Positions 3,038-45,347 of a stretch of 64,000 bases of DNA are shown here, in pieces. A program made the position numbers and the translations under genes. Source of the stretch: Candidatus Shapirobacteria bacterium (lineage in GTDB: Bacteria; Patescibacteriota; Microgenomatia; UBA12405; BS750m-G30); contig JBDRHA010000006.1 of the NCBI GenBank assembly GCA_043817235.1, positions 10,041 to 74,040 of the forward strand, written 5' to 3'. Position 1 is the stretch's first letter; the number at the start of each line of letters is the position of its first letter. The notes under the pieces were generated by a model. That model searched no databases and was not told where the DNA came from. It saw only the letters and a program-made list of their open reading frames with translations.

Positions 3038-4450
3038 CTAAAAGGTCGCCGTCGCCCGATATGTAATCGCGTTCCAATAATCGCCGGCTTGCTGGGTAGA
3101 AGAAACAATTGCTCGGTAGCAAACATAAGCATTTTCATTATCGGCCACTGTACCAGAATAGAAAATAGTTTGGTGAGCTTGAGTAGCGGATGCGTCTGCA
3201 AATTGTTTGGCGCAAAAAACGCCGTCGCAATCGTCGTCAGTAGAGGTATATTCAAAAGCTGCAGTATTCGCATCCACGTTTTCCAGGGAGTAGCCAAATC
3301 CCTTAGTATCAGTGCTTACCCATTCATCGGTTTGGGTGTGAGAAGCAGTGGTATTGTCTCCGGGCGTATCTGGAATTTCCGGAGCGGTAGCTCCTACCAT
3401 TGTTAGCTGATTATTTTCTAGAGCAGTGACAGCATAGCCGCCGTCAGCATTAGTGGAAACGGTCAAGTTTTGAGCCAGGTCAGCAAAAGAGCCGATAGAC
3501 AAAGAGCCAAAGGGTACAGTAGTTGCTGTAGAGGTAACATCAAGTGCATTGCCGCAGGCGGTTTCGCCGATAGCTATTCCGGCAATAGAAAAAGAAATAG
3601 TCGGATCAACTGTAGCAGTGACTCGCACTGACTCAATAACGGCAACTTTGGTAGTGGTGGAATCAATCGCTGTGTAGTTGGCATCAAGATTATCAACAAT
3701 AATACTGTAAGTATCGGCAGTTCCTGCAGTGTGGCCGGTAGTGGCCGAAGGATTAATTATTTCAGCAGCGCTGCCTACAACAAAAGTCATAGATCGGCCC
3801 GGGTCGCCTGGGCCGGAATAGCGGCATTCAAAGCAATGGTAGCCGGATGCACATCCTGATCCGGCGGAAGCGGTGGCCGTGCCGGTAACAAAGTCATAGT
3901 AGCTGGCCACATCATTCGGGCAGGTGACATCTGTGCCGGAAACTGAATTAAAATCCCAGCCTTCGTTATCAGGATGGCCGTCGTTGGGAGTAGTGGAATC
4001 GGCTTTAATCCGTACTTTAATGGCACCATTGGGGATAGCAGAAGTGGTTGTAAAAGTAATAGTGTGAGTGCCGGTCCGGTCAATGACAAATTCATCATTA
4101 GCATCATCGTCCGCCGCGTTTAAAGCGGAAGTAACGGCAAATTCGTCACTATCTATAACATAGTCAACAGTATAAGTATTGCTGGTAGCAGTGTAAACAA
4201 CTGTGTCTCCGGTAAAAATGTTGGCGGTGGTGGTGGAGGGAGTGCCGGCGCCAGCCATTTTAATAATCGTCGTGCCAGCGGTTAACTGCTCATTATTTTT
4301 GCCATGAAAAGAAAGGCGGGAGGTTTCTAAAGTATCGGCAATTGAAGTTAGGTTCGCGGATTCTAAAGAAAAAGGAAAAACAAAGCTCAGGCTAATAATT
4401 AGAATAAAATAACTTAAAACCCTAATTATTTTTTTGCTATTTTTCTTCAT
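3038..4450 (-). CDS. secreted Thr/Ser-rich protein A1: signal peptide plus C-terminal domain shared with the 6299-7072 protein
   Basis: Signal peptide MKKNSKKIIRVLSYFILIISLSFVFPFSLES. The C-terminus KQFADASATQAHQTIFYSG...AGDYWNAITYRATATF aligns with RQFADQEGAESAQIVMSS...AGNYENAITYIAVPGY of the 6299-7072 ORF. Confidence 0.55.
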   Translation of the reverse strand: MKKNSKKIIRVLSYFILIISLSFVFPFSLESANLTSIADTLETSRLSFHGKNNEQLTAGTTIIKMAGAGTPSTTTANIFTGDTVVYTATSNTYTVDYVIDSDEFAVTSALNAADDDANDEFVIDRTGTHTITFTTTSAIPNGAIKVRIKADSTTPNDGHPDNEGWDFNSVSGTDVTCPNDVASYYDFVTGTATASAGSGCASGYHCFECRYSGPGDPGRSMTFVVGSAAEIINPSATTGHTAGTADTYSIIVDNLDANYTAIDSTTTKVAVIESVRVTATVDPTISFSIAGIAIGETACGNALDVTSTATTVPFGSLSIGSFADLAQNLTVSTNADGGYAVTALENNQLTMVGATAPEIPDTPGDNTTASHTQTDEWVSTDTKGFGYSLENVDANTAAFEYTSTDDDCDGVFCAKQFADASATQAHQTIFYSGTVADNENAYVCYRAIVSSTQQAGDYWNAITYRATATF

Positions 4451-4460
4451 AACTGGTTTG

Positions 4461-4721
4461 CTAAATTTCTTTATTAATATTTTTACCTAATTTTAATTTC
4501 CTTGTCAATGGGTAGTATTTAAGCAAAACAGCGATTAGAAAGGCGATAATCAAAGCCGTTATAAGTCTAATAGGAACAATCCAAAACCTCGTAGCGAATT
4601 TAATTATAGGGCTATTTCCATTGGGCGCCAGACTTAATTCTGCCAAGTAAGGGCCGGGAAAGAAAGAAGAAAAGGCGCAGTCTTTTTCCTGGCAGGTGAG
4701 CAGGCGCCCGGAAAAAGACAA
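4461..4721 (-). pseudogene. C-terminal TM-anchor segment of surface protein B2, separated from its body (4746-5471) by an in-frame TAA
   Basis: Same frame as the 4746-6299 ORF; the stop is the reverse complement of tta at 4746-4748. ATRFWIVPIRLITALIIAFLIAVLL parallels TTFFWIIPWRAMTIALLIIVLIVLL of B1 (2058-3008). Confidence 0.4.
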
Positions 4722-4745
4722 AACATTATCTGGCCTTAATTCTAT

Positions 4746-5471
4746 TTATTTAATTTTTTTGCCAAAGATATTATAGATCTCTATTTTCCCGGCGCTTTTA
4801 AAAAAATTTTCTCCTAAATTAGCGGCCTTAATCGTGAATTTTATTTCCTGACCTAAATCAGCCAATTTAGGTTGGCTGAAAAACTCGCTTATTTCTCCTT
4901 TGGCTTCCAGATCAGCGGTTTGGGAAACTGTAATTAAAATATTACTGCCGATCTGGCCGGCCAAGCCGGGCTGCGCCTGCTGCTCGGAGAAGCTCACTTC
5001 AGGGATTTGCTGAATAAAAAACGTCGCATAATAATCTTTTTGGGGAAGATCCAAAGGCGCAGTAATTTTCAAAACCAGCTGCTGGCTTTGGTTAGGCTCC
5101 AGAACAAAAGTATCGCCCAAATTTATATTAGCGTTATTAAGTTTAAACTCGGGAAGACCCGTAAAAATATCCGGTTCTTGATATGTAATTTGGCCCTCCT
5201 TCGCCAAGGCTTCGGAGGGTAGAAAAAACCTAATTTCAGTTTGTAAATAGAGCAGGGAAGTGCCTAGGTTTTTTACCTCATAAGCTTGGGTGATGCTTTT
5301 TCCCGGCTGCAAGACAACTTCCAAAAGAGGAGGGGAAAGGGAGAGGGAGAAGCTCTGACCAGCGGCGAGGCAAGCCCTGTTTCCCCTGGCCGCTATAAAG
5401 GATATAACGGTTATAACGATTATAATTTTTATAGCGGCCAACAGGAAAAAAAGGACCAAGAGAGCAAGAGA
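4746..5471 (-). CDS. surface protein B2 ectodomain, paralog of 2058-3008. It has no start codon of its own and is read through in frame from the upstream four-helix-bundle ORF.
   Basis: Signal-peptide-like LALLVLFFLLAAIKIIIVITVISFIAA, then LLEVVLQPGKSITQAYEVKNLG..., comparable to LIKLTAIPPRLEISANPGDVVVDQLKVRNEG of B1. The ORF caller fuses it to 5520-6299. Confidence 0.45.
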   Translation of the reverse strand, partial: SLALLVLFFLLAAIKIIIVITVISFIAARGNRACLAAGQSFSLSLSPPLLEVVLQPGKSITQAYEVKNLGTSLLYLQTEIRFFLPSEALAKEGQITYQEPDIFTGLPEFKLNNANINLGDTFVLEPNQSQQLVLKITAPLDLPQKDYYATFFIQQIPEVSFSEQQAQPGLAGQIGSNILITVSQTADLEAKGEISEFFSQPKLADLGQEIKFTIKAANLGENFFKSAGKIEIYNIFGKKIK

Positions 5472-5519
5472 GGCGGTGCCCGCCTCTCGGCGGTAATTTA
5501 GCCGCTTTTTGAGGAGGTT

Positions 5520-6020
5520 TTCTCGAAAACCCCCATTTTTAACAAAGTCCTCCTCCAGCCAGCGCAGTTTTTGGTCTAAAAGCTGGTTTGTCTGGTTAAT
5601 TAGGCAGATCATGGTGTTGGCTGCGGTTTCTCCGCTGCTCTGGTATTTTTTATAATCGTTATAATTTTTATAACGCTTATATACCAAAGCTCTAACAGCT
5701 TTGGCGCTCGGATCGTCTTTAGCCCAAATTTTCAGCTTTTTTTGACGCAAAAAGTCTTGGTAGTCGTTGAGAAGCTCTTCTAAAGAAGCGCGGGCAACGG
5801 CTAAGAGATTGAGTTTGAGCGCACTACTTTTTTGCAAGTATCCTTCGGCGATGTTCTGTTTGCCGGAGCGTGCGGCCTGAATAAGCTGATCGCTTTGCCG
5901 TGAGAAGTTCTTATAACTTTTATGACGGTTATAATTTTTATAAGGGCCAGAAAAACATTTATCTATGTATTTCTCGCAAAACTCCACCGTAAAATCGTGG
6001 ATTATTTCTGCCTGCTGGAA
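5520..6020 (-). CDS. four-helix-bundle protein (TIGR02436-like; the 23S rRNA intervening-sequence protein family). N-terminus unresolved; the upstream part of the ORF, to 6299, is MITE-derived.
   Basis: SDQLIQAARSGKQNIAEGYLQKSSALKLNLLAVARASLEELLNDYQDFL matches the family hallmark Q..R.a.Si..NIAEG...s.......l.iA.gSl.El (from memory). Tyr/Asn-rich 9-bp repeats lie at both ends. Confidence 0.5.
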
Positions 6021-6039
6021 AAATGGAAGAGAGCGATAC

Positions 6040-6250
6040 CCTCCTTCGCTAAAGCTACGGCGGGCAGGCCCTCCTTCGCGGGCAAGCCCTCCTCTGTCAT
6101 TGCGAGGAGTCCCGATGCTTCTTTTAGTCACCGGGACGACGTGGCAATCCCGTTTTGAGATTGCTTCAGTTTCGTTCGCAATGACATTTTTGTTAACCCC
6201 TGTTGCTGCGGTGTGGTTCGGGTCACGCCCGGTGTGTGATTTATCTTCTT
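6040..6250. repeat. MITE-like repeat cluster embedded in frame in the 5' part of the 4746-6299 ORF
   Basis: tgtcattgcgaggagtcccgatgc ... gtggcaatcccgtttt ... gttcgcaatgacattt, plus the ggtgtggttcgggtcacgcccggtgtgtg hairpin. Confidence 0.75.
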
Positions 6251-6298
6251 TCTGGTCCCTATAACGATTATAATGGTTATAACTGTTATATCCCGTCA

Positions 6299-7072
6299 TC
6301 AGTACCCCGGAACAGCAATATAAGTAATGGCATTTTCATAGTTTCCGGCGGCCTGGGATCCGCTGATATTAACTTTATAAGTAACTGTTGCGGTTGAGGA
6401 GGAAGTGACGGCATCAGAGCTCATCACGATTTGAGCACTTTCCGCGCCTTCTTGGTCAGCAAACTGGCGAAAAAAAGTAGAATCTTCAAAATCTTCCGGA
6501 ATATCATCGCCGCTGATTTTAAAGCCAAAGCCGTAAATAGAATCATTTATCCAGGGATCAGCGTCTGTTTCATCGCAAGAAAGTGTGTCACAAGTAGTAT
6601 CAACTATATCATTGGCTTGCTCAGAGCGGAGCGGATGGTTTTCAAAAGCCAGAACTTGGTACCCGCCGGCGCCACCAGCCGATACATTTAAAGTATTGGT
6701 GTCTGTCGAGGGGGTGCCGGGGACTAGTGAGCCAAAAGCAATGCTTAAATCGGAAATTGTAAAAGTAAAGGGAATAATAGAATGAATATACTGGAACCCG
6801 GCTCTCAGCCAATAGCCGTCGGACTGATAATCGCCGGGGGCAATCTGGCCAATAGTGTCGGTTAGGTTATAGCTGTCGGAGGATTTTTCTCCGCCGCCGA
6901 TGTTCACGTTTCCGCCCTGAATTTTATAGCTATCGGAATCCATATTGGCCGCGTTCACCCTCCGATTCGGAAGGCTCACCCTCCGGATTGGAGGGCTGGC
7001 TGCTATAAAAGATATAATCATTATAATAGTTATAATTTTTATAGCGGCCAACAAGAAATGAAGGCGGGTCAC
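6299..7072 (-). CDS. secreted protein A2, a shorter paralog of A1 (3038-4450)
   Basis: N-terminal MTRLHFLLAAIKIITIIMIISFIAA is encoded by the 57-bp repeat at 7002-7058. The C-terminal domain aligns with the A1 C-terminus. Confidence 0.5.
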   Translation of the reverse strand: MTRLHFLLAAIKIITIIMIISFIAASPPIRRVSLPNRRVNAANMDSDSYKIQGGNVNIGGGEKSSDSYNLTDTIGQIAPGDYQSDGYWLRAGFQYIHSIIPFTFTISDLSIAFGSLVPGTPSTDTNTLNVSAGGAGGYQVLAFENHPLRSEQANDIVDTTCDTLSCDETDADPWINDSIYGFGFKISGDDIPEDFEDSTFFRQFADQEGAESAQIVMSSDAVTSSSTATVTYKVNISGSQAAGNYENAITYIAVPGY

Positions 7073-7800
7073 GCCTCATCTCCCTCCAAATCAACCAATC
7101 TTTGCAGTTTATTAGCTCCCCTTAGCAGATATTTAGTTCGTTTGCGAATTTTCTTTAAATGATCTTTTTGAGTATAAGATAGCTGATTTAAAGCAATAAG
7201 CATTTGGGAAACCCGATCCAAAATTTCTTCCAGTCCTGGCTTGAGCTTTAAAGTGAGCCAAAACAAAGTATTAGCTTCCTGATTTTCCAAATGCTTTTCT
7301 CCGGAAAGCCATTTTTGCATGTAAAGCTTAGTTCTTTTGTCAGCGCTTAAATTGCGCAAATAAAGCTGGCCAAAATATAAAGCTAAGGGAGTGATTAGGA
7401 ATAAAGATAGCAGAGCGGCAATTTCCTGGCTGTTTTGAACGGTGGGTGTTAAAAAAACCAAGAGAATAAAAGCTAAAGTGATAGTAATTGGTGGCTCAAA
7501 AAGAAAAGAGAGCCCAAAAAGAAGAAAGTATATTAAGAAAAAAAGCGGGGAGCTTGCCCCGCCGGTGGCAAAAACCAGCAAAAGGATAACAATCGTTAAA
7601 ATTAAAGCATCTATTGTTTTATGAGTAAGATTTTGTTCTTGGCAAAAGAGCTTGTGTTTTAAAAACCAGATAATGACTAAGCCGGCAATAAGCTGAAGAT
7701 TGTAAAAAGAAAGAATTGGGTGCTGGGTCCAAACATAGGTAGTAACCACGGCCAAGAATAAATAAACAAGATGGAGAAAGAATTTGACCGAAATAATCAT
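7069..7800 (-). CDS. hypothetical polytopic membrane protein, first gene of the minus-strand surface-protein operon
   Basis: About 5 hydrophobic helices in the first 150 aa, followed by a charged coiled-coil-like C-terminus. The 4-nt overlap (ATGA) with the next gene suggests translational coupling. Confidence 0.45.
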   Translation of the reverse strand: MIISVKFFLHLVYLFLAVVTTYVWTQHPILSFYNLQLIAGLVIIWFLKHKLFCQEQNLTHKTIDALILTIVILLLVFATGGASSPLFFLIYFLLFGLSFLFEPPITITLAFILLVFLTPTVQNSQEIAALLSLFLITPLALYFGQLYLRNLSADKRTKLYMQKWLSGEKHLENQEANTLFWLTLKLKPGLEEILDRVSQMLIALNQLSYTQKDHLKKIRKRTKYLLRGANKLQRLVDLEGDEA

Positions 7801-13935: not shown

Positions 13936-16641
13936 ATGACTAAACGAGATTTTAAAAAGCAGGAAAATAAGTGGCAAGTTGTTTGGGAAAAACAGGGCTG
14001 GTATCGGGCTAAGGATTTTGAAAAAAGGAAAAAGAAAAAATATGTTTTAGTTGAGTTTCCTTATCCTTCCGGCGAGGGTTTGCATATCGGCCATGCCTTT
14101 TCTATGACTGGCGCAGATATTTACGCTCGCTTTTGCCGGATGAGTGGTTTTAATGTTCTTTTTCCCATGGGTTGGGATGCTTTTGGCTTGCCTACGGAAA
14201 ATTACGCCATTAAAACCGGCATTTCGCCCCAAAAAGCGACCAAAAAAAACACTGATAATTTTCGGCGGCAGATGAAAAAGCTGGCTTTTTCTTTTGACTG
14301 GAGCCGGGAAATCAATACCACTGATCCGGATTATTATCGCTGGACGCAGTGGATTTTTATTCAGCTTTTTAAAAAAGGTTTGGCCTATAAAGAAGAAAAG
14401 CCAATAAATTGGTGTCCTTCCTGTCGAATTGGGCTGGCCAACGAGGAAGTGATTGACAGCAAGTGCGAGCGATGTGGGGCACAAACTCTTAAAAAGAATA
14501 TTAACCAGTGGATTGTTAAAATCACTGATTATGCTGAGCGCTTAATTTCCGGGCTGGAAGAAACTACTTTTGTTTCTAAAGTAAAAGCGGCTCAAATTAA
14601 CTGGATTGGCAGGAGTGAGGGGGCAAGGGTGAAGTTTAAACTTTCTCAAGACTCGGTCTCAATTTTGCGGTGCTCATCCCGCAGTGGCGGGACTCCTAAA
14701 ATTGAAACCTCGTCAGCTTTCTTGGAGGTTTTTACTACCCGTCCTGATACTTTATGGGGAGCGACTTTTATGGTGCTTTCTCCCGAGCACCGCCTTGTGG
14801 CGGAAATTCTAAATTCTAAATCCGAAGCTCCTGCCTCGCCGGCAGGCGGGCCAAATAAATCAAAAATTTCAAATTCTAATATTGAAGAAATTAAGAAATA
14901 TGTTAATCGGGCGAGGAGAAAGACAGATTTAGAAAGAGCCGAGCTGGAAAAAGAGAAAACCGGGGTCTTTACCGGGATTTATGCCCTAAATCCAGCGAAT
15001 AACGAAAAAATTCCGGTTTGGGTATCGGATTTTGTTTTAAGCACTTATGGTACCGGGGCGATTATGGCCGTGCCCGCTCATGACCAGCGGGATTTTGCTT
15101 TTGCTAAAAAATATAATCTGCCGATTATTCCGGTCATCAAGCCGCCGAAAAAATGGGACTTTGGTAAAGAGCCTTATGTGGATGTGGATCGGGGGGCAAT
15201 GATTAATTCCGGCCCGATTAATGGATTGGCACCGAAAGAGGCGATTAAAAAGACTTTAAATATACTAGAAAAAAAAGAAGCAGGGAAAAAAGCAATTGAT
15301 TATCACTTGCGCGATTGGATTTTTTCCCGCCAGCATTATTGGGGAGAGCCAATACCCATGACTTATTGCGCCAGATGCGGTTGGCAGCCGGTTAAAGAAT
15401 CGGATTTGCCGGTGGAATTGCCAAAGGTAAAAAAATATGAGCCGACTAAAACCGGAGAATCGCCTTTGGCCAATATTAGGGATTGGGTTAATGTTACGTG
15501 CCCAGTTTGTGGAGGTAAAGCTGAGCGGGAAACCGACACCATGCCTAATTGGGCCGGTTCAGATTGGTACTACCTCGCCTATTGCTTCGCAGGCAAACTC
15601 GGAAATTACAAATTACAAATTCCAAAGACCAAACAAATTACAAATTCCAATAACCAAAAACTAAAAAGTTTGGATACTTGTAATTTGGAGCTTGGAAATT
15701 CTCAAAATATTTTTGAGTCTTCAAAAGATGTTTTGAGCCATTGGCTGCCGGTGGATGTTTATGTGGGCGGAGACGAACATAATACTTTGCACCTGCTTTA
15801 TTCCCGGTTTATTTACCAGTTTTTGCGGGATCTGGGAGTAGTGCCCAAATCTATTCCCGAGCCTTATTATTGGCGGCTTTCCCATGGAGTAATTTTAGGG
15901 GCAGACGGGAGTCGTATGAGCAAATCGCGGGGCAACATAGTGGAGCCGGACAAGCTTTGGGAAAAATACGGCGTGGATGCTTTGCGCACTTATATGATGT
16001 TCATGGGCCCGTTTGAGGGAACGATTGTTTGGAATGATAATGCTTTAAAAGGGGTGGTGCGTTTTTTGGATAGATTTTATGATTTCGTAATAACTCCCGA
16101 GGTAGGCCTTGATTCCTCGAGAGCTGCTTCGAGTCCCGGAACTCCCGAGGTAGGCCTTGATTCCTCGGGAGTTGAGGTTGTTGCAATAAATAAGCTTGTT
16201 AATAAAGTTTCTCGTGACTTGTCTAGTTTTCAGTTTAATACGGCAATAGCGGCGATGATGGAATGGCTTAATCAGGCTGAAAAAGAGGCTTGGCAATTAA
16301 AAGACGAAGAAAAAAGAATTTTAATTCAGTTGATTGCACCGTTTGCTCCATATACGTCTGAAGATCTTTGGGAAAATTTGGGAGGAAAAGGGAGTGTGCA
16401 TTGGAGCAAATGGCCAGAAGTGGAAAAAAAGGCTCTTCGAGAAGAAGAGGTGGTTATTGCTGTTCAAGTTAATGGGAAGTTGAGAGCAACAATACAGCTT
16501 AAAACTAAAAGCTTAAAGCTTAAAGCCAGAATAGAAGAAAAAGCAAAGAAAGAAGAAAAAGTCGCAAAATACTTAAAAGGCAAGAAAATAATCAAAACTA
16601 TTTACATCCCGGGAAGATTAATTAACTTTGTGGTAAAGTAA
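13936..16641 (+). CDS. leuS: leucyl-tRNA synthetase
   Basis: HIGH motif PYPSGEGLHIGHAF; KMSKS motif SRMSKSRGN; TTRPDT editing-domain motif. Carries low-complexity and palindromic in-frame insertions (see findings). Confidence 0.95.
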   Translation: MTKRDFKKQENKWQVVWEKQGWYRAKDFEKRKKKKYVLVEFPYPSGEGLHIGHAFSMTGADIYARFCRMSGFNVLFPMGWDAFGLPTENYAIKTGISPQKATKKNTDNFRRQMKKLAFSFDWSREINTTDPDYYRWTQWIFIQLFKKGLAYKEEKPINWCPSCRIGLANEEVIDSKCERCGAQTLKKNINQWIVKITDYAERLISGLEETTFVSKVKAAQINWIGRSEGARVKFKLSQDSVSILRCSSRSGGTPKIETSSAFLEVFTTRPDTLWGATFMVLSPEHRLVAEILNSKSEAPASPAGGPNKSKISNSNIEEIKKYVNRARRKTDLERAELEKEKTGVFTGIYALNPANNEKIPVWVSDFVLSTYGTGAIMAVPAHDQRDFAFAKKYNLPIIPVIKPPKKWDFGKEPYVDVDRGAMINSGPINGLAPKEAIKKTLNILEKKEAGKKAIDYHLRDWIFSRQHYWGEPIPMTYCARCGWQPVKESDLPVELPKVKKYEPTKTGESPLANIRDWVNVTCPVCGGKAERETDTMPNWAGSDWYYLAYCFAGKLGNYKLQIPKTKQITNSNNQKLKSLDTCNLELGNSQNIFESSKDVLSHWLPVDVYVGGDEHNTLHLLYSRFIYQFLRDLGVVPKSIPEPYYWRLSHGVILGADGSRMSKSRGNIVEPDKLWEKYGVDALRTYMMFMGPFEGTIVWNDNALKGVVRFLDRFYDFVITPEVGLDSSRAASSPGTPEVGLDSSGVEVVAINKLVNKVSRDLSSFQFNTAIAAMMEWLNQAEKEAWQLKDEEKRILIQLIAPFAPYTSEDLWENLGGKGSVHWSKWPEVEKKALREEEVVIAVQVNGKLRATIQLKTKSLKLKARIEEKAKKEEKVAKYLKGKKIIKTIYIPGRLINFVVK

Positions 16642-19307: not shown

Positions 19308-22300
19308 ACTTTCAGCTTTTTGGATTTTTTGCCCTCCGGTTTTGAGCAAAATCTCTTTTTCAAACTCCTTTGGCCAGGAAGGAGCAAAAATAATTATTTT
19401 ATCGGTTAATTCTAAATTTTCTTTTCTTCGCAGCGTCTGGACTTCTCTAATTAAATCGCGCGCTTTACCCTCTTTTTTTAATTCTGGGGTTAATTTTGTA
19501 TTGAGCTTTATGCTTTTAGCTAATTTTATTTTTTTAATATTCAGCTCATCTAAAAGAAGATAGTCGATATTTAGCTTCTTAAAAAAGGAAGCGTTTGGCG
19601 AATACAAGGCGGAAAGCGGTTGCTTGACGGCAATATTTTTTGCTTTGCGCAAGGCATGACCTTCGGTAACTTCGTTTCTTAATTGAGCCATTGCTTTTTC
19701 TAAATCCAAATTTAAATATTTCTTTTCTATTTTTGGCCAAGACTGGAGATGAATGGAGTCTTTAACTTTTAATTTATTTTTATTTCCCTGAAGGTTCTGC
19801 CAGACGGTTTCCGGCAAAAAAGGAATAAAGATACCCAAAAGCAAGGAAAGCTGCTCCAGGCAATGATAGAGGGTGCTAAAACAAGCTTCGCGGTCCCTCG
19901 TGTTTTGGCTGTTGGGCGAGAGCCGCTCGCGGGAGCGGCGCACATACCAAAGGGAAAGATCTTCTATAAAGTTTTCTAAGCTTTTTAAGGCGTTTTGATG
20001 ACGAAAACGATTCAGTTCGCCTTGGGCCTCTTTTTTGGTGTTTTCCAGCCGAGAGAGAATCCAAGCGTCAAGCGGGCTAGTGTCATTGCGAGGAGTCGCT
20101 GAGGAGGCGTGGAAATCCAGTTTCCGTGTCATTGCGAGGATCGGAGCGACGTGGCAATCTTTCCAACGGGATCGCCACGCCCCCGACGTCACGTCGTGGG
20201 ACTCGCGATGACAAGGACACCAGCCATTTAAATTCGCATAAGTAGCTAAAAAGCGAAAAGAGTTCCAATAAAGGAAAATAAATCTTCGCCTGATTTCATC
20301 GGCAATAGAATAGCCAAAATTAAGGCCAAGATGGGGCCTTTGCCGGCAGTATAGCCAGCGCATCGTGTCTACTCCCATTTTTTCGACAGCCTCATCATAA
20401 GGAATGCCGTTTTTCTTGGTCTTGCTCATTCGCTCGCCTTTTTCGTCGCGCACTTCGCCGTGGTTAAGAACACTCTTGTATGGAGCCATATTTTCAAAAA
20501 TTACTCCGTAAACGAGCATCGAATAAAACCAGAGCCGGATTTGCTCAATCATTTCCAAAACTAAGTCAGCCGGGAACCACTTTTGCCAGTATTTTTTGTC
20601 TTCAAAATATTTTAAGGTAGAAAAAGGAACGACGCCTGCGTCCAGCCAGCAATCGCCCACGTCCAAAATTCGGTTTACGGGCTTACCGCACTGGGGGCAT
20701 TTGATTTTAATTTCATCAACCCAGGGTCGGTGCAAAGAGGGGAGTTTGTCGACTAAATTTTGGTTTACTGCCAATTTTTTTAGTTCTTTTTTAGAGCCGA
20801 TTACGGTTAGTTTTTTGCACTTAAGGCATTCATAAAAAGGCAAAGATAAGCCGTAAAAGCGCTTGCGGCTGATCATCCAGTCTCCCATATTATTGAGCCA
20901 GCCCTGCATTCTTTTTCCGGCAAATTTCGGAATCCAGTTGGCCGTGGCCGCGGCCTTTTTTAGCTCGGGCTTGATTTTGGTGCAATTAATAAACCAATTT
21001 TCTTCTAAGCGAAATAAAGTTTTTGCGCCGCACCGCCAGCAGTGGGGGTAAGAATGGGTAATGGTTTCCGTTTTATAAAGTAGATTTTTGTCTTTTAAAT
21101 AGTTAATTACTTCTTTTCCCACTTCGTGGGCGTATTTATTAGTTAAACTACCGTAGCCCGGGCCAAATTGGCCGGCTTCCGTTAAAGGAGAAAGAGCGGG
21201 TGCGCCCAAGCTTTTTCCCAGGAGAAAATCGTCTTCTCCACAGCCCGGAGCAATATGAACGATTCCGGTTCCTTCATCTGGATTAGCCAGCTTCCATTTT
21301 ACGACAGAATGCTTAATATTTTTTTGAGCGGGAATATCATAAAGCGATTCGTATTCTTGACCTAATAAATCTTTGGCGGCAACGGAGATTTGGTTTTTCA
21401 AGCCCAAGCGGTCGGCCGACTCTTTAGCCAAATACCAGTATTCGACTCCGCTGTCATCCCGAGCGTAGTCGAGGGATCTTCTTTTTTTTGTCATTGCGAG
21501 CGTAGCGAAGCAATCCCGAGTGGAATCTGTAATTTCAACGGGATCGCCATGTCCCGCAGCTGCGGGACTCGCGATGACACGATTCTTCGCGACGACACGG
21601 ACTTTCACATACTCATATTCTGGATTGATCGCCAAAAGGACGTTAGCAGATAAAGTCCAGGGGGTTGTAGTCCAGGCTAAGAAATACTCATTCTTTTTAT
21701 TTTTTAAAGGGAATTTAACATGAACGGAAAAATCTTGAATATCTTTATAGCCTTCGGCCTGTTCATGGCGGGATAAACCGGTTTCGCACCTCGGGCACCA
21801 GGTGGTGGCGGATTTTGCCTTATAAAGTAATTCTTTTTGGCGGCAGATTTGCAAAAATTTCCAAATATATAAATTATTAGTTTCCGAATAAGTATAATAG
21901 GAATTATCCCAATCCATAAAATAGCCCAAGCGCTTGGACTGCTCGGCTTGCAAGGCAGCATAAGTTTTGACCCGGTCTTGGCATGATTGGGTAAATTTAG
22001 CTAAACCATATTTTTCAATATCTTTTTTGGAATTAAAGCCTAAGGCTTTTTCCACCTCTACTTCAACCCAAAGTCCCTGGCAGTCAAACCCGTTTTGAAA
22101 TCTTTGCTGATAGCCTTGGGCGTTTTTGTATTTTTGATAAAGGTCTTTTAAGGTTCGGCCCCAGGCATGGTGCGCACCCATGGGGTTATTGGCAGTAATT
22201 GGGCCGTCAATAAAAGAAAAGCGCTTTTTAGAATTTTTATTTTTGGCTAAATATTTTTCAAGCAAGCCGTTTTTTTCCCAAAACTTAAGAATCTTTTTTT

Positions 22301-43562: not shown

Positions 43563-45347
43563 TTACCAGCTTCCTCCGCCGCCGCCGCCAAAGCCGCCAC
43601 CGGAAGAGCCGCCGCCGCTAAAGCCTGATCCTCCGGACCAAGAGGAGCGGCCGGACCAAGATTGACTGGGTGAAGAAACTAGATTGGCGCTGGCTTGCCG
43701 GGAAAAACGATTAAAGTCAGCGTTAAAAGTACTCACGGCAAAGCCATTTAAATAAGAAGGCGGAGGAACTTCAAGTTTGGCCATATCGGAAGTTAATTTG
43801 GTGACTACGCTTAAGCAAATGGCCAAAGGCAGCATTTCCTCTAAAAATAAATGCTTTTCGCTAATTTCTTCCCGCCACTTTCCTTTGCCCAAATAGTACC
43901 GCAAGCCCGTGATTTGGCGAAAAAGCGAATGGCCCCAGGCCGTGCGGCGGGGCATGTTTTTGCCAAATAAAATCGCCGGGAGAATACCAGCGATTAATAA
44001 TAATATAGGGCCAGGGTTGGCGGTTAAACTAACAAAAGAAATAATCGGGCCAAAAACTGCCCCTGCCAAAACAAAGTAAATAATCAGCCACTTGAGGCGG
44101 ACTTTTTCCGGGTTGCCGGAAAAAATATTTTCTTGGGCTAGATATTCATAAAGCTTTTTCTTAAAAAGATTTAAAGAAGAGTAGAATTTATTTTTTAGTT
44201 CAGAAAGCTTAATTTCGCCGTCTTTAGCTTTGCTAAATATTTCTTGATATAAATATTTTTGGTAGCTTTTTAAGCTTTTCGTGTCTTTTTGTTTTTTAAT
44301 AAATAAATAGTCTGTTTTTTGGCCAATTAGCCTCTTTTTCTTTATTTTCTTAATTTCTAAAAAACCTAAACGGGCAAGCTCAATAATTTCAGCTACCACA
44401 TCTTGAATATCTACCTTTTCGTCTAAAATAGTGCCTACCTCGGCCGGGGTAAGGTTATCAATCGGGTGGTAAACCAAGGGCAGGTGCTCCCGAGCAAAAA
44501 CAGAAACAGTTTTTGTTTTTTGATTTTCTGGCTGGTAATAAACATTGCCAGAAACAAAGCGCAGATCCCGGCCCTTTTTATACCAGAAGAAAAATATTAT
44601 GGCCAGCGGAAGCAGCGCTAAAGGATAGCCCCAATTAGCAGCCAAAAAACTAATACTTCTTTCTAAAATCCCCGGAAAAATTAAATTATTTTCGGGTTCT
44701 AAGCCGACGACAATCGTAAAATCATCTCCCCAAGATAGGGGAGAGACAGCCGAAAATTCGGCAGAATTTTCGGTTTGATTAATTAGTTTTCCGTTAAAAC
44801 TTTCGGTTTTTGCTATTTTGCCATAAGGCGAAGTAATAATAGCCTTAGCTTGTTTAATAGTTGTATCCCACTCTGATCCAGTCACGTTCCAATAAAGTTC
44901 CGGCATACCCTCCGATTCGGAGGGCGAGTAAACTAAAAGAATATTTTTCATCTGATATTTAATAATATAAATATGTTCTCCTATAATGGTTTTACCAGGA
45001 TCGCCGATTTGGATTTTAATACTCTGATTTAGCCGGGAGGTTTGATACTGATAAGGCTGGCTCATTTCGTTTTCGATTGAGAGAATTTTAAGTTGAGCAT
45101 TAATCGTTCGGCCGTGGGCAGTGTATATCGTGGGAATAATTCGGAAGATTCCGTGTTTATTAATATTAAAATTAACCAAAATAGTTTCGGCGACTGTTAA
45201 AGAGGTATCCTGATTAATCGTAATTTCACTTTTAAAGTCTTCGATAATATAGTCAGAAGAAGTAGCCAAAGCAGGGGAGAGGAAAGCAAAAAACAAGAAA
45301 ATAGCTAAGCTGATTAAAAGCTTTTTCATGGTTAATAATGATAGCAT
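43563..45347 (-). CDS. DUF2207-family membrane protein with Gly-rich C-terminal tail
   Basis: Signal peptide, large ectodomain, TM helices around aa 230-250 and 420-470, and the tail GGSGFSGGGSSGGGFGGGGGGSW characteristic of DUF2207 proteins. Confidence 0.6.
   Translation of the reverse strand: MLSLLTMKKLLISLAIFLFFAFLSPALATSSDYIIEDFKSEITINQDTSLTVAETILVNFNINKHGIFRIIPTIYTAHGRTINAQLKILSIENEMSQPYQYQTSRLNQSIKIQIGDPGKTIIGEHIYIIKYQMKNILLVYSPSESEGMPELYWNVTGSEWDTTIKQAKAIITSPYGKIAKTESFNGKLINQTENSAEFSAVSPLSWGDDFTIVVGLEPENNLIFPGILERSISFLAANWGYPLALLPLAIIFFFWYKKGRDLRFVSGNVYYQPENQKTKTVSVFAREHLPLVYHPIDNLTPAEVGTILDEKVDIQDVVAEIIELARLGFLEIKKIKKKRLIGQKTDYLFIKKQKDTKSLKSYQKYLYQEIFSKAKDGEIKLSELKNKFYSSLNLFKKKLYEYLAQENIFSGNPEKVRLKWLIIYFVLAGAVFGPIISFVSLTANPGPILLLIAGILPAILFGKNMPRRTAWGHSLFRQITGLRYYLGKGKWREEISEKHLFLEEMLPLAICLSVVTKLTSDMAKLEVPPPSYLNGFAVSTFNADFNRFSRQASANLVSSPSQSWSGRSSWSGGSGFSGGGSSGGGFGGGGGGSW

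Follow-up and report, generated by a model that had tools for sequence, protein, structure and literature searches.

Palindromic 9-bp repeat arrays link a TIGR04258 four-helix-bundle gene with signal-peptide cores in a Candidatus Shapirobacteria Pam-type pilus operon

A 64,000-nucleotide stretch of DNA from a Candidatus Shapirobacteria bacterium (GenBank assembly GCA_043817235.1, contig JBDRHA010000006.1, positions 10,041 to 74,040 of the forward strand; hereafter the window) holds an operon related to the newly described Pam pilus operon of the Candidate Phyla Radiation (CPR). All of its genes lie on the minus strand (Table 1). A gene for a multi-pass membrane protein is followed by A2, a PamT-like pilin, and then by a 517-codon open reading frame (ORF) whose segments come in the order Tyr/Asn array, read-through of a miniature inverted-repeat transposable element (MITE), four-helix-bundle suffix protein, hydrophobic segment and B2 ectodomain. 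The bundle gene sits between the PamT-like pilin gene and the next pam gene, a place from which it is missing in syntenic relatives. Five arrays of a 9-bp repeat are embedded in this region. Four of them fall within or at the borders of the bundle gene (start, loop 1, loop 3, end), at the same four positions as in Microgenomates homologues of its TIGR04258 family, and the fifth, which nearly duplicates the fourth, lies at the 5' end of the pilin gene.

Table 1. Features of the Pam-type operon and its repeat arrays, in window coordinates
Feature	Position	Strand	Basis or remark
243-aa multi-pass membrane protein, first operon gene	7069-7800	-	ORF list
A2, PamT-like single-domain tip pilin	6299-7072	-	NF058579 and NF058581, both below cut-off
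Long copy 1, 5 units	6997-7050, core 7004-7043	-	Hairpin array, clamps TTGGCCGC / GCAGCCAG
21-bp tandem repeat, CCCTCC..GGAGGG hairpin motif	6955-6996	-	Tandem Repeats Finder
517-codon continuous ORF	4746-6299	-	ATG overlaps A2 stop (TGATG)
Start array, 4 units	6260-6290	-	Read YNSYNHYNRY
MITE	6095-6186		11-bp perfect terminal inverted repeat TGTCATTGCGA; read through in frame in bundle ORF
Four-helix-bundle suffix protein	5484-6044	-	ORF residues 86-272
Loop-1 array	5911-5943	-	Read YKNYNRHKSYKNF
Loop-3 array	5651-5681	-	Read YKRYKNYNDYKKY; RNA fold -12 kcal/mol, z -4.7
Long copy 2, 5 units	5387-5440, core 5394-5433	-	Hairpin array, clamps TTGGCCGC / GCGGCCAG
B2 ectodomain	4749-5357	-	52% identity to L084 6783-7799; synteny
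B2 continuation after in-frame TAA (4746-4748)	4464-4742	-	Aligns to C-terminal part of 338-aa orthologues
470-aa Pam pilin	3038-4450	-	NF058581, E=1.9e-6, below cut-off

Five sites of related 9-bp arrays had been reported in the initial annotation of this locus, and a scan for TTATAAY plus two TATAA cores at 9-bp spacing, with up to two mismatches, bears this out. On both strands of the 64 kb the three-unit pattern gave 23 strand-matches against 0.05 expected from shuffles, falling at 5393-5434, 5650-5682, 5911-5943, 6259-6291 and 7003-7044, all within 1.7 kb; no copy was found in the window outside 5390-7045, and Tandem Repeats Finder called period 9 at all five sites. The arrays are a real repeat family, and the five sites are copies of that one family. 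Its unit consists of the 8-bp palindrome RTTATAAY and a ninth, free base, and every array is therefore partly self-complementary and complementary to every other array. Each array has three to five units, no two adjacent units are identical in any of the five, and all five lie inside ORFs. Four of the five start with TATAAAAATTATAAY, and the flanks are related and of the CTGGCC/GGCCAG type, with TTGGCCGC...GCRGCCAG around the A2 and B2 copies, ...GGGACCAG at the N-terminal array and CTGGCCCT... at the loop-1 array. These related starts and flanks are best read as the result of recent duplication or gene conversion among the arrays of the locus. A literature search on the TIGR04258 family, its accessions and the repeat and peptide strings found nothing on the arrays, and the repeat family is apparently new to the literature. 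Elsewhere in the window, Tandem Repeats Finder called AAATTAC-type repeats of 7, 25 and 32 bp at 15603-15665 and a 15-bp repeat (GCCGCCGCCGCAAAA, 3.2 copies) at 43578-43625.

The two longest arrays, 5392-5448 and 7002-7058, were correctly described as about 86% identical (49/57), and the similarity includes flanks on both sides (84% over 69 nt, 5386-5454 against 6996-7064). Each is an imperfect palindrome (5387-5413/5414-5440 and 6997-7023/7024-7050) that folds as RNA at -30.5 kcal/mol (5387-5440, z -5.7) or -22 kcal/mol (6997-7050, z -6.6), with hairpin stems of about 22-29 bp broken by internal loops. Their minus-strand translations, ...LLAAIKIIIVITVISFIAA and ...LLAAIKIITIIMIISFIAA, had been quoted accurately, as had the Tyr/Asn repeats of the bundle ORF (in full, YNSYNHYNRYR for the start array), and the long copies do supply two non-homologous proteins with the hydrophobic core of their signal peptides. 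In the ATA frame, long copy 1 gives AAIKIITIIMIISFIAA, the hydrophobic region (h-region) of the A2 signal peptide, and long copy 2 gives AAIKIIIVITVISFIAA, the h-region of the B2 signal peptide. Long copy 2 also holds the position of the TIGR04258 family's downstream, stop-codon array; since it is read in the ATA frame and not as TTA-TAA, the bundle ORF runs on into B2. The positive charges of KKRLNYRRE before the hydrophobic segment suggest that the fusion would insert N-in and could be cleaved at ...CLAAG/QSF. In A2 the 21-bp tandem repeat, translated as SPPIRRVSLPNRRVN, stands between the h-region and the cleavage region, and the aligned PamT homologues are without it. Hairpin motifs of the same CCCTCC...GGAGGG type occur at 6039-6093, beside the MITE, and at 5194-5222, inside B2.

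Long stems of this kind could be RNase III substrates, as could paired flanking arrays, and the messenger RNA might then be cut around the inserted gene much as ribosomal RNA is cut around an intervening sequence (IVS). The segments 5400-5452 and 6241-6293 form a 53-nt inverted repeat around the bundle gene (79% complementary), the founding members of the protein family are IVS-encoded, and Rfam returned for the region only sub-threshold look-alikes of miRNA-type hairpins, at the two long copies. Complementarity between any two arrays, however, follows from the palindromic unit, B2 would lose its start codon if the cut ends were not ligated, and Rfam found no rRNA in the region. The arrays of a syntenic relative (locus L103; comparison loci are cited by such numbers) are no more stably folded than shuffles (z -1.5 and -1.8). 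We regard IVS-like processing as very unlikely, and the same two folds rule out hairpin formation as a general trait of the arrays.

What an array encodes depends on how it is read. On either strand the unit has three readings and no others: TTA-TAA, a stop; TAT-AAY-NNT, Tyr-Asn/Lys-x; and ATA-AYN-NTT, Ile-x-hydrophobic. Read-through of an array consequently yields one of two products, a Tyr ladder like those of the bundle loops or a hydrophobic helix like those of the Pam signal-peptide cores. Two ORFs of L002 that are extended through arrays, MSYNCYNGYNDYNSYNSYKNY-MFIVIEG... and ...IIVIIIITVITVITL-MEKTLIILKPD..., illustrate how both kinds of peptide arise. One short palindromic repeat can in this way be put to two opposite uses in proteins, the core of a secretion signal or a Tyr/Asn-rich loop, and reading frame alone decides between them.

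The loop-3 ladder is constrained on its nucleotides and not on the protein alone. Its tyrosines (Y207/210/213/216/219) are invariant in our family alignment (A1), and they are encoded by TAT in 94/95 cases in CPR loci and 196/217 in other phyla, compared with 89/125 and 201/349 for the other Tyr codons of the same genes (Fisher, p = 2.5e-9 and 4e-18, respectively). In the CPR loop 3, moreover, a T precedes the Tyr codon in 85 of 95 cases and an Asn or Lys codon (AAN) follows it in 72 of 95. Arrays upstream of the family's genes use all three frames relative to the ORF (8/3/7), which rules out that they are mere N-terminal coding sequence, and the family's downstream arrays are non-coding.

Residues 224-271 of the window's bundle protein match the TIGR04258 suffix domain at 65.9 bits (cut-off 40), and its N-terminal bundle matches TIGR02436 at 29.3 (cut-off 24) and Pfam PF05635 at 26.3, under the cut-off of 33.8. 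An AF2 (AlphaFold 2) model with a pLDDT (predicted local confidence score) of 85 has 2GSC and 2RLD as its top PDB matches, with TM(target) up to 0.74, and a profile match to 2GSC has E = 0.002. From the order of the helices, loops 1 and 3 are predicted to lie at the same end of the bundle. More than 7,900 homologues, spread over many phyla, were found, at up to 71% identity. They are stand-alone proteins of about 173-227 amino acids (aa) that end 5-15 aa after KKRL, unlike the window copy, which reads on into B2.

Of the five arrays, three are no peculiarity of this locus but a stereotyped feature of the whole TIGR04258 family, to whose architecture four (start, loop 1, loop 3, end) belong. 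In 19 Microgenomates loci taken together with a protein alignment, with distances measured from the SGKQN anchor, an array lies upstream or at the start (-136 to -217) in 18, in loop 3 (about +186 to +225) in at least 17 and at the stop (about +388 to +439) in about half. The window arrays lie at -423 (about -180 without the MITE region), -76, +186 and +434. Locus L211 (69% identity), among the closest homologues, has all four arrays, as the window does, and its loop-1 array is at the same place, as is that of L058; the loop-1 insert and the N-terminal Tyr/Asn tail occur in some members of alignment A1 only and vary in length. In seven of 26 loci (L001-L005, L010, L211) the bundle gene uses as its stop codon the TAA of the first downstream unit, and about five further downstream arrays begin within a few nucleotides of the stop. 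Unit number at orthologous sites ranges from 3 to 7 between species, which is ordinary repeat evolution. At 893-3466 of L211 a glycosyltransferase gene lies between two bundle-suffix genes, and their starts and stops overlap; one bundle-suffix gene has the four arrays and the other has neither arrays nor the Tyr ladder. A long fused ORF in L062 is without an array at its junction and was set aside as coincidence.

Arrays are also found well away from this gene. When metagenome contigs were scanned without bias for four units, at least 120 array loci came up; among the matches listed, 8 of 120 have the bundle gene, which rules out that the arrays occur only with it, and the adjoining ORFs are diverse housekeeping genes, for example those for L14, S17, SecY and thymidylate kinase. 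On contigs of CPR-like composition, with ATG-ORFs of at least 90 aa approximating gene starts, an ORF start fell within -9 to +40 nt of the array edge for 30 of 58 arrays (52%), against 19% for random positions, and edge-to-ATG distances peaked at -1 and at 5-8 nt. Arrays stop 3-10 nt short of the ATG of rplA, rplK and secE (all in L103), of rplK in L154 and L173, and of tmk and two ndk genes in L002, L005 and L008. Contigs of higher GC content (0.47-0.58; L086, L096, L135, L204, L099, L182 and others) carry 9-bp arrays of the TATAAGGTT or TATAAGTCT type, up to 7-8 units long and beside unrelated genes, so that this class of repeat is not confined to CPR bacteria.

Placement just before start codons is what would be expected if the arrays were initiation elements, either phased -10-like (TATAAT) boxes or AU-rich elements of translation initiation, whose presence within ORFs is incidental; many units are indeed TGnTATAAT or TATAAT. 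In the window, however, no array lies 5-8 nt upstream of a start, all five being inside ORFs, and in genes of the PamT type the array comes after the ATG. Convergent genes flank the downstream array of L211, the arrays of other phyla (TATAGGACC) do not resemble -10 boxes, and a promoter and terminator consensus scan of the region gave 10 hits, no excess over shuffles (6.6 +/- 2.1), and nothing meaningful at the arrays. Initiation, like IVS-like processing, accounts for some of the observations but does not fit the layout of the window, and it seems improbable to us.

Outside the Microgenomates the bundle-suffix genes carry arrays at the same positions with a different unit, TAT-NNG-NCY (e.g. 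CCTATAGG). The other-phyla loci (L020-L080) gave 51 array calls in loop 3 and flanking arrays in about 12, and control periods of 8 and 10 gave almost no arrays. This pattern bears on the main rival to our explanation, according to which the arrays are operators or RNA targets of the bundle-suffix protein, which would bind them as DNA or RNA and thereby control the pilin and B2 genes. Binding would explain why the gene always carries arrays and why the type of unit tracks the gene's lineage. Nearly all examined Microgenomates copies of the gene do carry arrays, and the unit shifts with gene lineage inside and beside the gene alike, being RTTATAAY in Microgenomates and TAT-NNG-NCY in Saccharibacteria and other phyla. 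In non-CPR loci, flank units are more like the loop-3 units of their own locus (0.672) than those of other loci (0.654; permutation p ~0.016). Arrays in the window are found only within 1.2 kb of the gene, palindromic 8-mers are typical of dimeric binders, the predicted juxtaposition of loops 1 and 3 fits as well, and related four-helix-bundle proteins, such as Avd of diversity-generating retroelements (DGRs), bind nucleic acid. On the other hand, the co-variation comes down to essentially two unit classes, with a within-phylum effect that is real but small, and likeness within a locus is equally explained by gene conversion. Few of the listed metagenomic array loci are near the gene, although a trans-acting factor need not adjoin its sites, and no supporting literature was found. 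The proposal is attractive, but what speaks for it is association, and we consider it unlikely.

A bolder version deserves mention, namely that TIGR04258 proteins and 9-bp arrays make up a widespread, undescribed two-part system of protein and cognate site. The protein's own gene would be built around sites at its start, two loops and stop, with a unit that co-evolves with the protein; arrays at other gene starts would be a regulon or landing pads; and signal peptides and Tyr ladders would be by-products of the three reading frames. We offer this as speculation and think it unlikely.

The syntenic relatives indicate what was inserted into the window's operon. A PamT homologue is followed directly by a B2 homologue in L084/L085, L103, L206 and L208, with a gap of 36 bp in L084/L085, of 4 bp in L206 and of 1 nt (T) between stop and ATG in L103. 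The order in L084/L085 is 242-aa membrane-protein gene, PamT homologue, B2 homologue and pilin; this pam operon has neither a bundle gene nor arrays, and the sole array call there is one of 3 units about 5 kb downstream, near an integrase gene. In L081-L083 a different, 124-aa bundle gene (PF05635/bAvd, about 5607-6004) lies between the 242-aa gene and the PamT homologue; this is the junction at which the window has its 7002-7058 copy, and 8-bp repeats (ACGAATAT) precede the gene. The suffix gene itself is found in five or more synteny contexts, and within a subclade the context is conserved. The initial annotation had read the layout as consistent with a cassette (5449-7001) inserted or shuffled between repeats. 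An insertion there was, in that the bundle gene is extra with respect to the relatives; the proposed extent does not hold, as no relative lacks the whole of 5449-7001. All of them keep PamT, and only the bundle gene comes and goes. From synteny, the insertion is the bundle gene alone, roughly 5434-6299.

Nor are the long copies there to bracket an insert, since twin array-encoded signal peptides occur in two relatives that have no gene between them. In L103 the PamT homologue starts ATGCGCAAGTT-TATAATCATTATAATTTTTATAACTGTTATA (MRKFIIIIIFITVITIII) and the next gene starts ATGCGCAGGTT-TATAATCTTTATAATCGTTATAATTTTTATAATTATTATA (MRRFIIFIIVIIFIIII); in L206 the PamT homologue and its neighbour have MTKLKTITIIIFITIITVILIT and ...SISVITIIMIITVIL, from arrays with near-identical ends. 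L208 has an array-encoded signal peptide on its PamT homologue only. These gene-free twins also weaken the idea that the bundle gene brought both the A2 and the B2 copy with it; the B2 copy alone, which sits at the family's downstream-array position, may still have come in this way. Periodic I-x-x h-regions were found in 8-11 of 120 PamT homologues. The closest relatives (L081-L083 and L084/L085, with 81% and 71% PamT identity) have ordinary signal peptides built from other, lineage-specific simple repeats, and CTATATT x4, TTGCTAC xN and AGATATTA-type repeats were seen at such places (L081 6016-6050; L084 6010-6085 and 6800-6860; L208 894-960). Repeat-built signal peptides may be general in Pam operons.

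The 9-bp period had further been taken as the design of contingency loci, hypermutable arrays whose long copies bound a shuffled cassette of A2, MITEs and bundle gene. It is true that the repeats stand at the 5' ends of surface-protein genes, that orthologous sites differ in unit number between species and that the loop-1 insert varies in length among homologues. The units are nevertheless imperfect, number only 3-5 and never repeat an identical neighbour; a 9-bp unit cannot switch the frame, so that gain or loss of units at the window arrays could change only the length of the protein; and the arrays are identical in near-identical contig pairs from different samples (L206/L207, 99.97%; L209/L210), which belong to species other than the source of the window. 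A contingency on/off switch is accordingly unsupported. With A2 conserved and syntenic in all relatives and with twin copies present where nothing lies between them, the proposal as a whole is largely refuted, and we give it hardly any credence. Recombination between arrays is still a reasonable route for the insertion of the bundle gene.

The other genes of the operon were assigned as follows. Described Pam systems have PamT as tip pilin and PamC and PamD as membrane-anchored PapD-like chaperones, and all components carry Sec signal peptides (10.64898/2026.03.03.709456). A2 matches the NCBIfam model NF058579 (PamT) with E=6e-12 and 45.4 bits, short of the equivalog cut-off of 240, and NF058581 (Pam_pilin_C) with E=1.5e-8 and 34.8 bits (cut-off 55), and is on this basis a PamT-like relative and not a certified equivalog. 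It stands in a Pam operon context, with a downstream Pam pilin C domain protein and conserved synteny. Among its 954 homologues one, from a Candidatus Shapirobacteria metagenome-assembled genome, is 100% identical, and a signal peptide is present in all those aligned; the exact sequences of A2 and of its NCBI version (P0121, 240 aa) had no match in the metagenome contig collection. P0121 starts 17 codons downstream, within the array. The likelier start is the GTG that overlaps the stop of the upstream 243-aa gene (GTGA), an arrangement conserved in L084. At the operon position of that gene, L081-L085 have a 242-aa homologue and L206 a 247-aa gene; the 243-aa protein had no family match, and NCBIfam put no name to B2, its 338-aa orthologue, the 242-aa membrane protein and the remaining operon genes.

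The bundle gene runs into B2 with no stop codon in between. The only possible starts are ATG 6299 and GTG 6131 for the bundle protein, and TTG 5459 and TTG 5441 for B2 on its own. Shuffled sequences left the N-terminal extension open in 1.5% of cases and the linker in 20%, for a joint probability, with shared frame, of about 0.001, and continuity of the 517-codon ORF by chance is unlikely. In relatives the PamT homologue is followed by a 338-aa protein of which B2 is the orthologue; judged by the preprint's description of the chaperones, B2 is probably a membrane-anchored chaperone of PamC/D type. The part that follows its in-frame TAA includes the orthologue's C-terminal transmembrane helix; B2 is thus split, decaying, nonsense-bearing or mis-assembled. 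A pattern scan found no array at the signal peptide of the 470-aa pilin, which is therefore not array-encoded. Only one clear MITE lies between the arrays, where several had been supposed; its terminal motif, TGTCATTGCGAGG, occurs 21 times in the 64 kb against 1 expected (e.g. at 20081, 20127, 33040 and 45571).

As an explanation of the whole, to which we assign a probability of roughly 55%, we propose one repeat family whose products follow from frame and which has spread and moved as follows. Duplication through hairpins or slippage, together with short-tract gene conversion, would give rise to the arrays and keep those of one locus similar. The arrays would persist at gene boundaries, in signal-peptide cores and in surface loops because these places tolerate them. 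Their short stretches of homology would allow the bundle gene to relocate between array-bearing gene starts, and the insertion in the window would be one that kept the frame of B2. There would then be two ways to make B2, as part of a fusion whose internal signal-anchor can be cleaved or by a start at an internal TTG, and the array-encoded segments would act in export.

Several observations weigh against this explanation. First, arrays are kept at orthologous starts across species and at a fixed distance of 5-8 nt, which points to a selected function that an account of tolerated repeats does not supply. Second, 30-40 imperfect base pairs are a poor substrate for homologous recombination. Third, the comparison yielded no filled site with an empty counterpart in a close relative, the nearest ones (71-81% PamT identity) having no arrays in the pam operon, and the B2 array could either predate the bundle gene or have arrived with it. 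Fourth, the 21-bp repeat places four Arg directly after the A2 h-region, which is unfavourable for export, and the A2 segment is as an export signal less convincing than that of the B2 fusion. Finally, the in-frame stop in B2 means that the locus may be decaying.

The arrays give a first tangible way into a very large, uncharacterised family of small proteins, whose genes carry stereotyped, nucleotide-constrained repeats that match repeats at the boundaries of other genes. They also call for caution in the annotation of CPR genomes: ORFs extended through arrays can be spurious (tmk and ndk in L002), the choice of start codon near arrays is unreliable, as in the A2 entry that begins 17 codons late, and what looks like a fusion protein may be an insertion that kept the frame. 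For the newly described Pam pilus operon, a tempting reading as phase variation is removed as unsupported.

Several known systems resemble parts of this arrangement. As in the IVSs of 23S rRNA genes that contain a PF05635 ORF, an ORF of the same superfamily lies within a transcribed host unit and is bracketed by mutually complementary repeats that could form a long stem. In the window, however, the host is a protein-coding pilus operon, with no rRNA according to Rfam, and the flanks are 9-bp arrays that are found also inside the ORF and at the starts of unrelated genes; IVSs are excised by RNase III, whereas excision here is hypothetical. Rickettsia palindromic elements (RPEs) are dispersed palindromic repeats of 100-150 bp found in frame within protein-coding genes. 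The arrays share with them a hairpin-forming repeat that is translated within unrelated proteins with the frame kept, but they are tandem 9-mers in one local cluster in the 64 kb and, unlike RPEs, concentrate at the 5' ends of genes, where they supply a signal-peptide core or a Tyr ladder. Simple-sequence contingency loci are known from Haemophilus, Neisseria and Mycoplasma. Like these, the arrays are short tandem repeats at the 5' ends or promoters of genes for surface structures and differ in copy number between lineages; unlike them, they have a unit that is a multiple of three, are imperfect, have 3-5 copies and do not vary between near-identical contigs.

The bundle protein is similar in sequence and predicted fold to the TIGR04258 and TIGR02436 proteins, which include the Avd of DGRs. 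No DGR components were noticed beside the gene, though no search was aimed at them, and the repeat architecture at nucleotide level was not found for the TIGR04258 family in the literature searched. Unlike those proteins, the window copy no longer ends at a stop of its own but continues into the downstream gene as a fusion. The operon itself agrees with the described CPR Pam operon in having a PamT-like tip pilin, a Pam pilin and a partner anchored by a transmembrane helix, in a system in which Sec signal peptides are needed (10.64898/2026.03.03.709456); it departs from that description in its two repeat-made signal-peptide cores, the foreign gene and MITE inserted into it, and the in-frame stop in B2.

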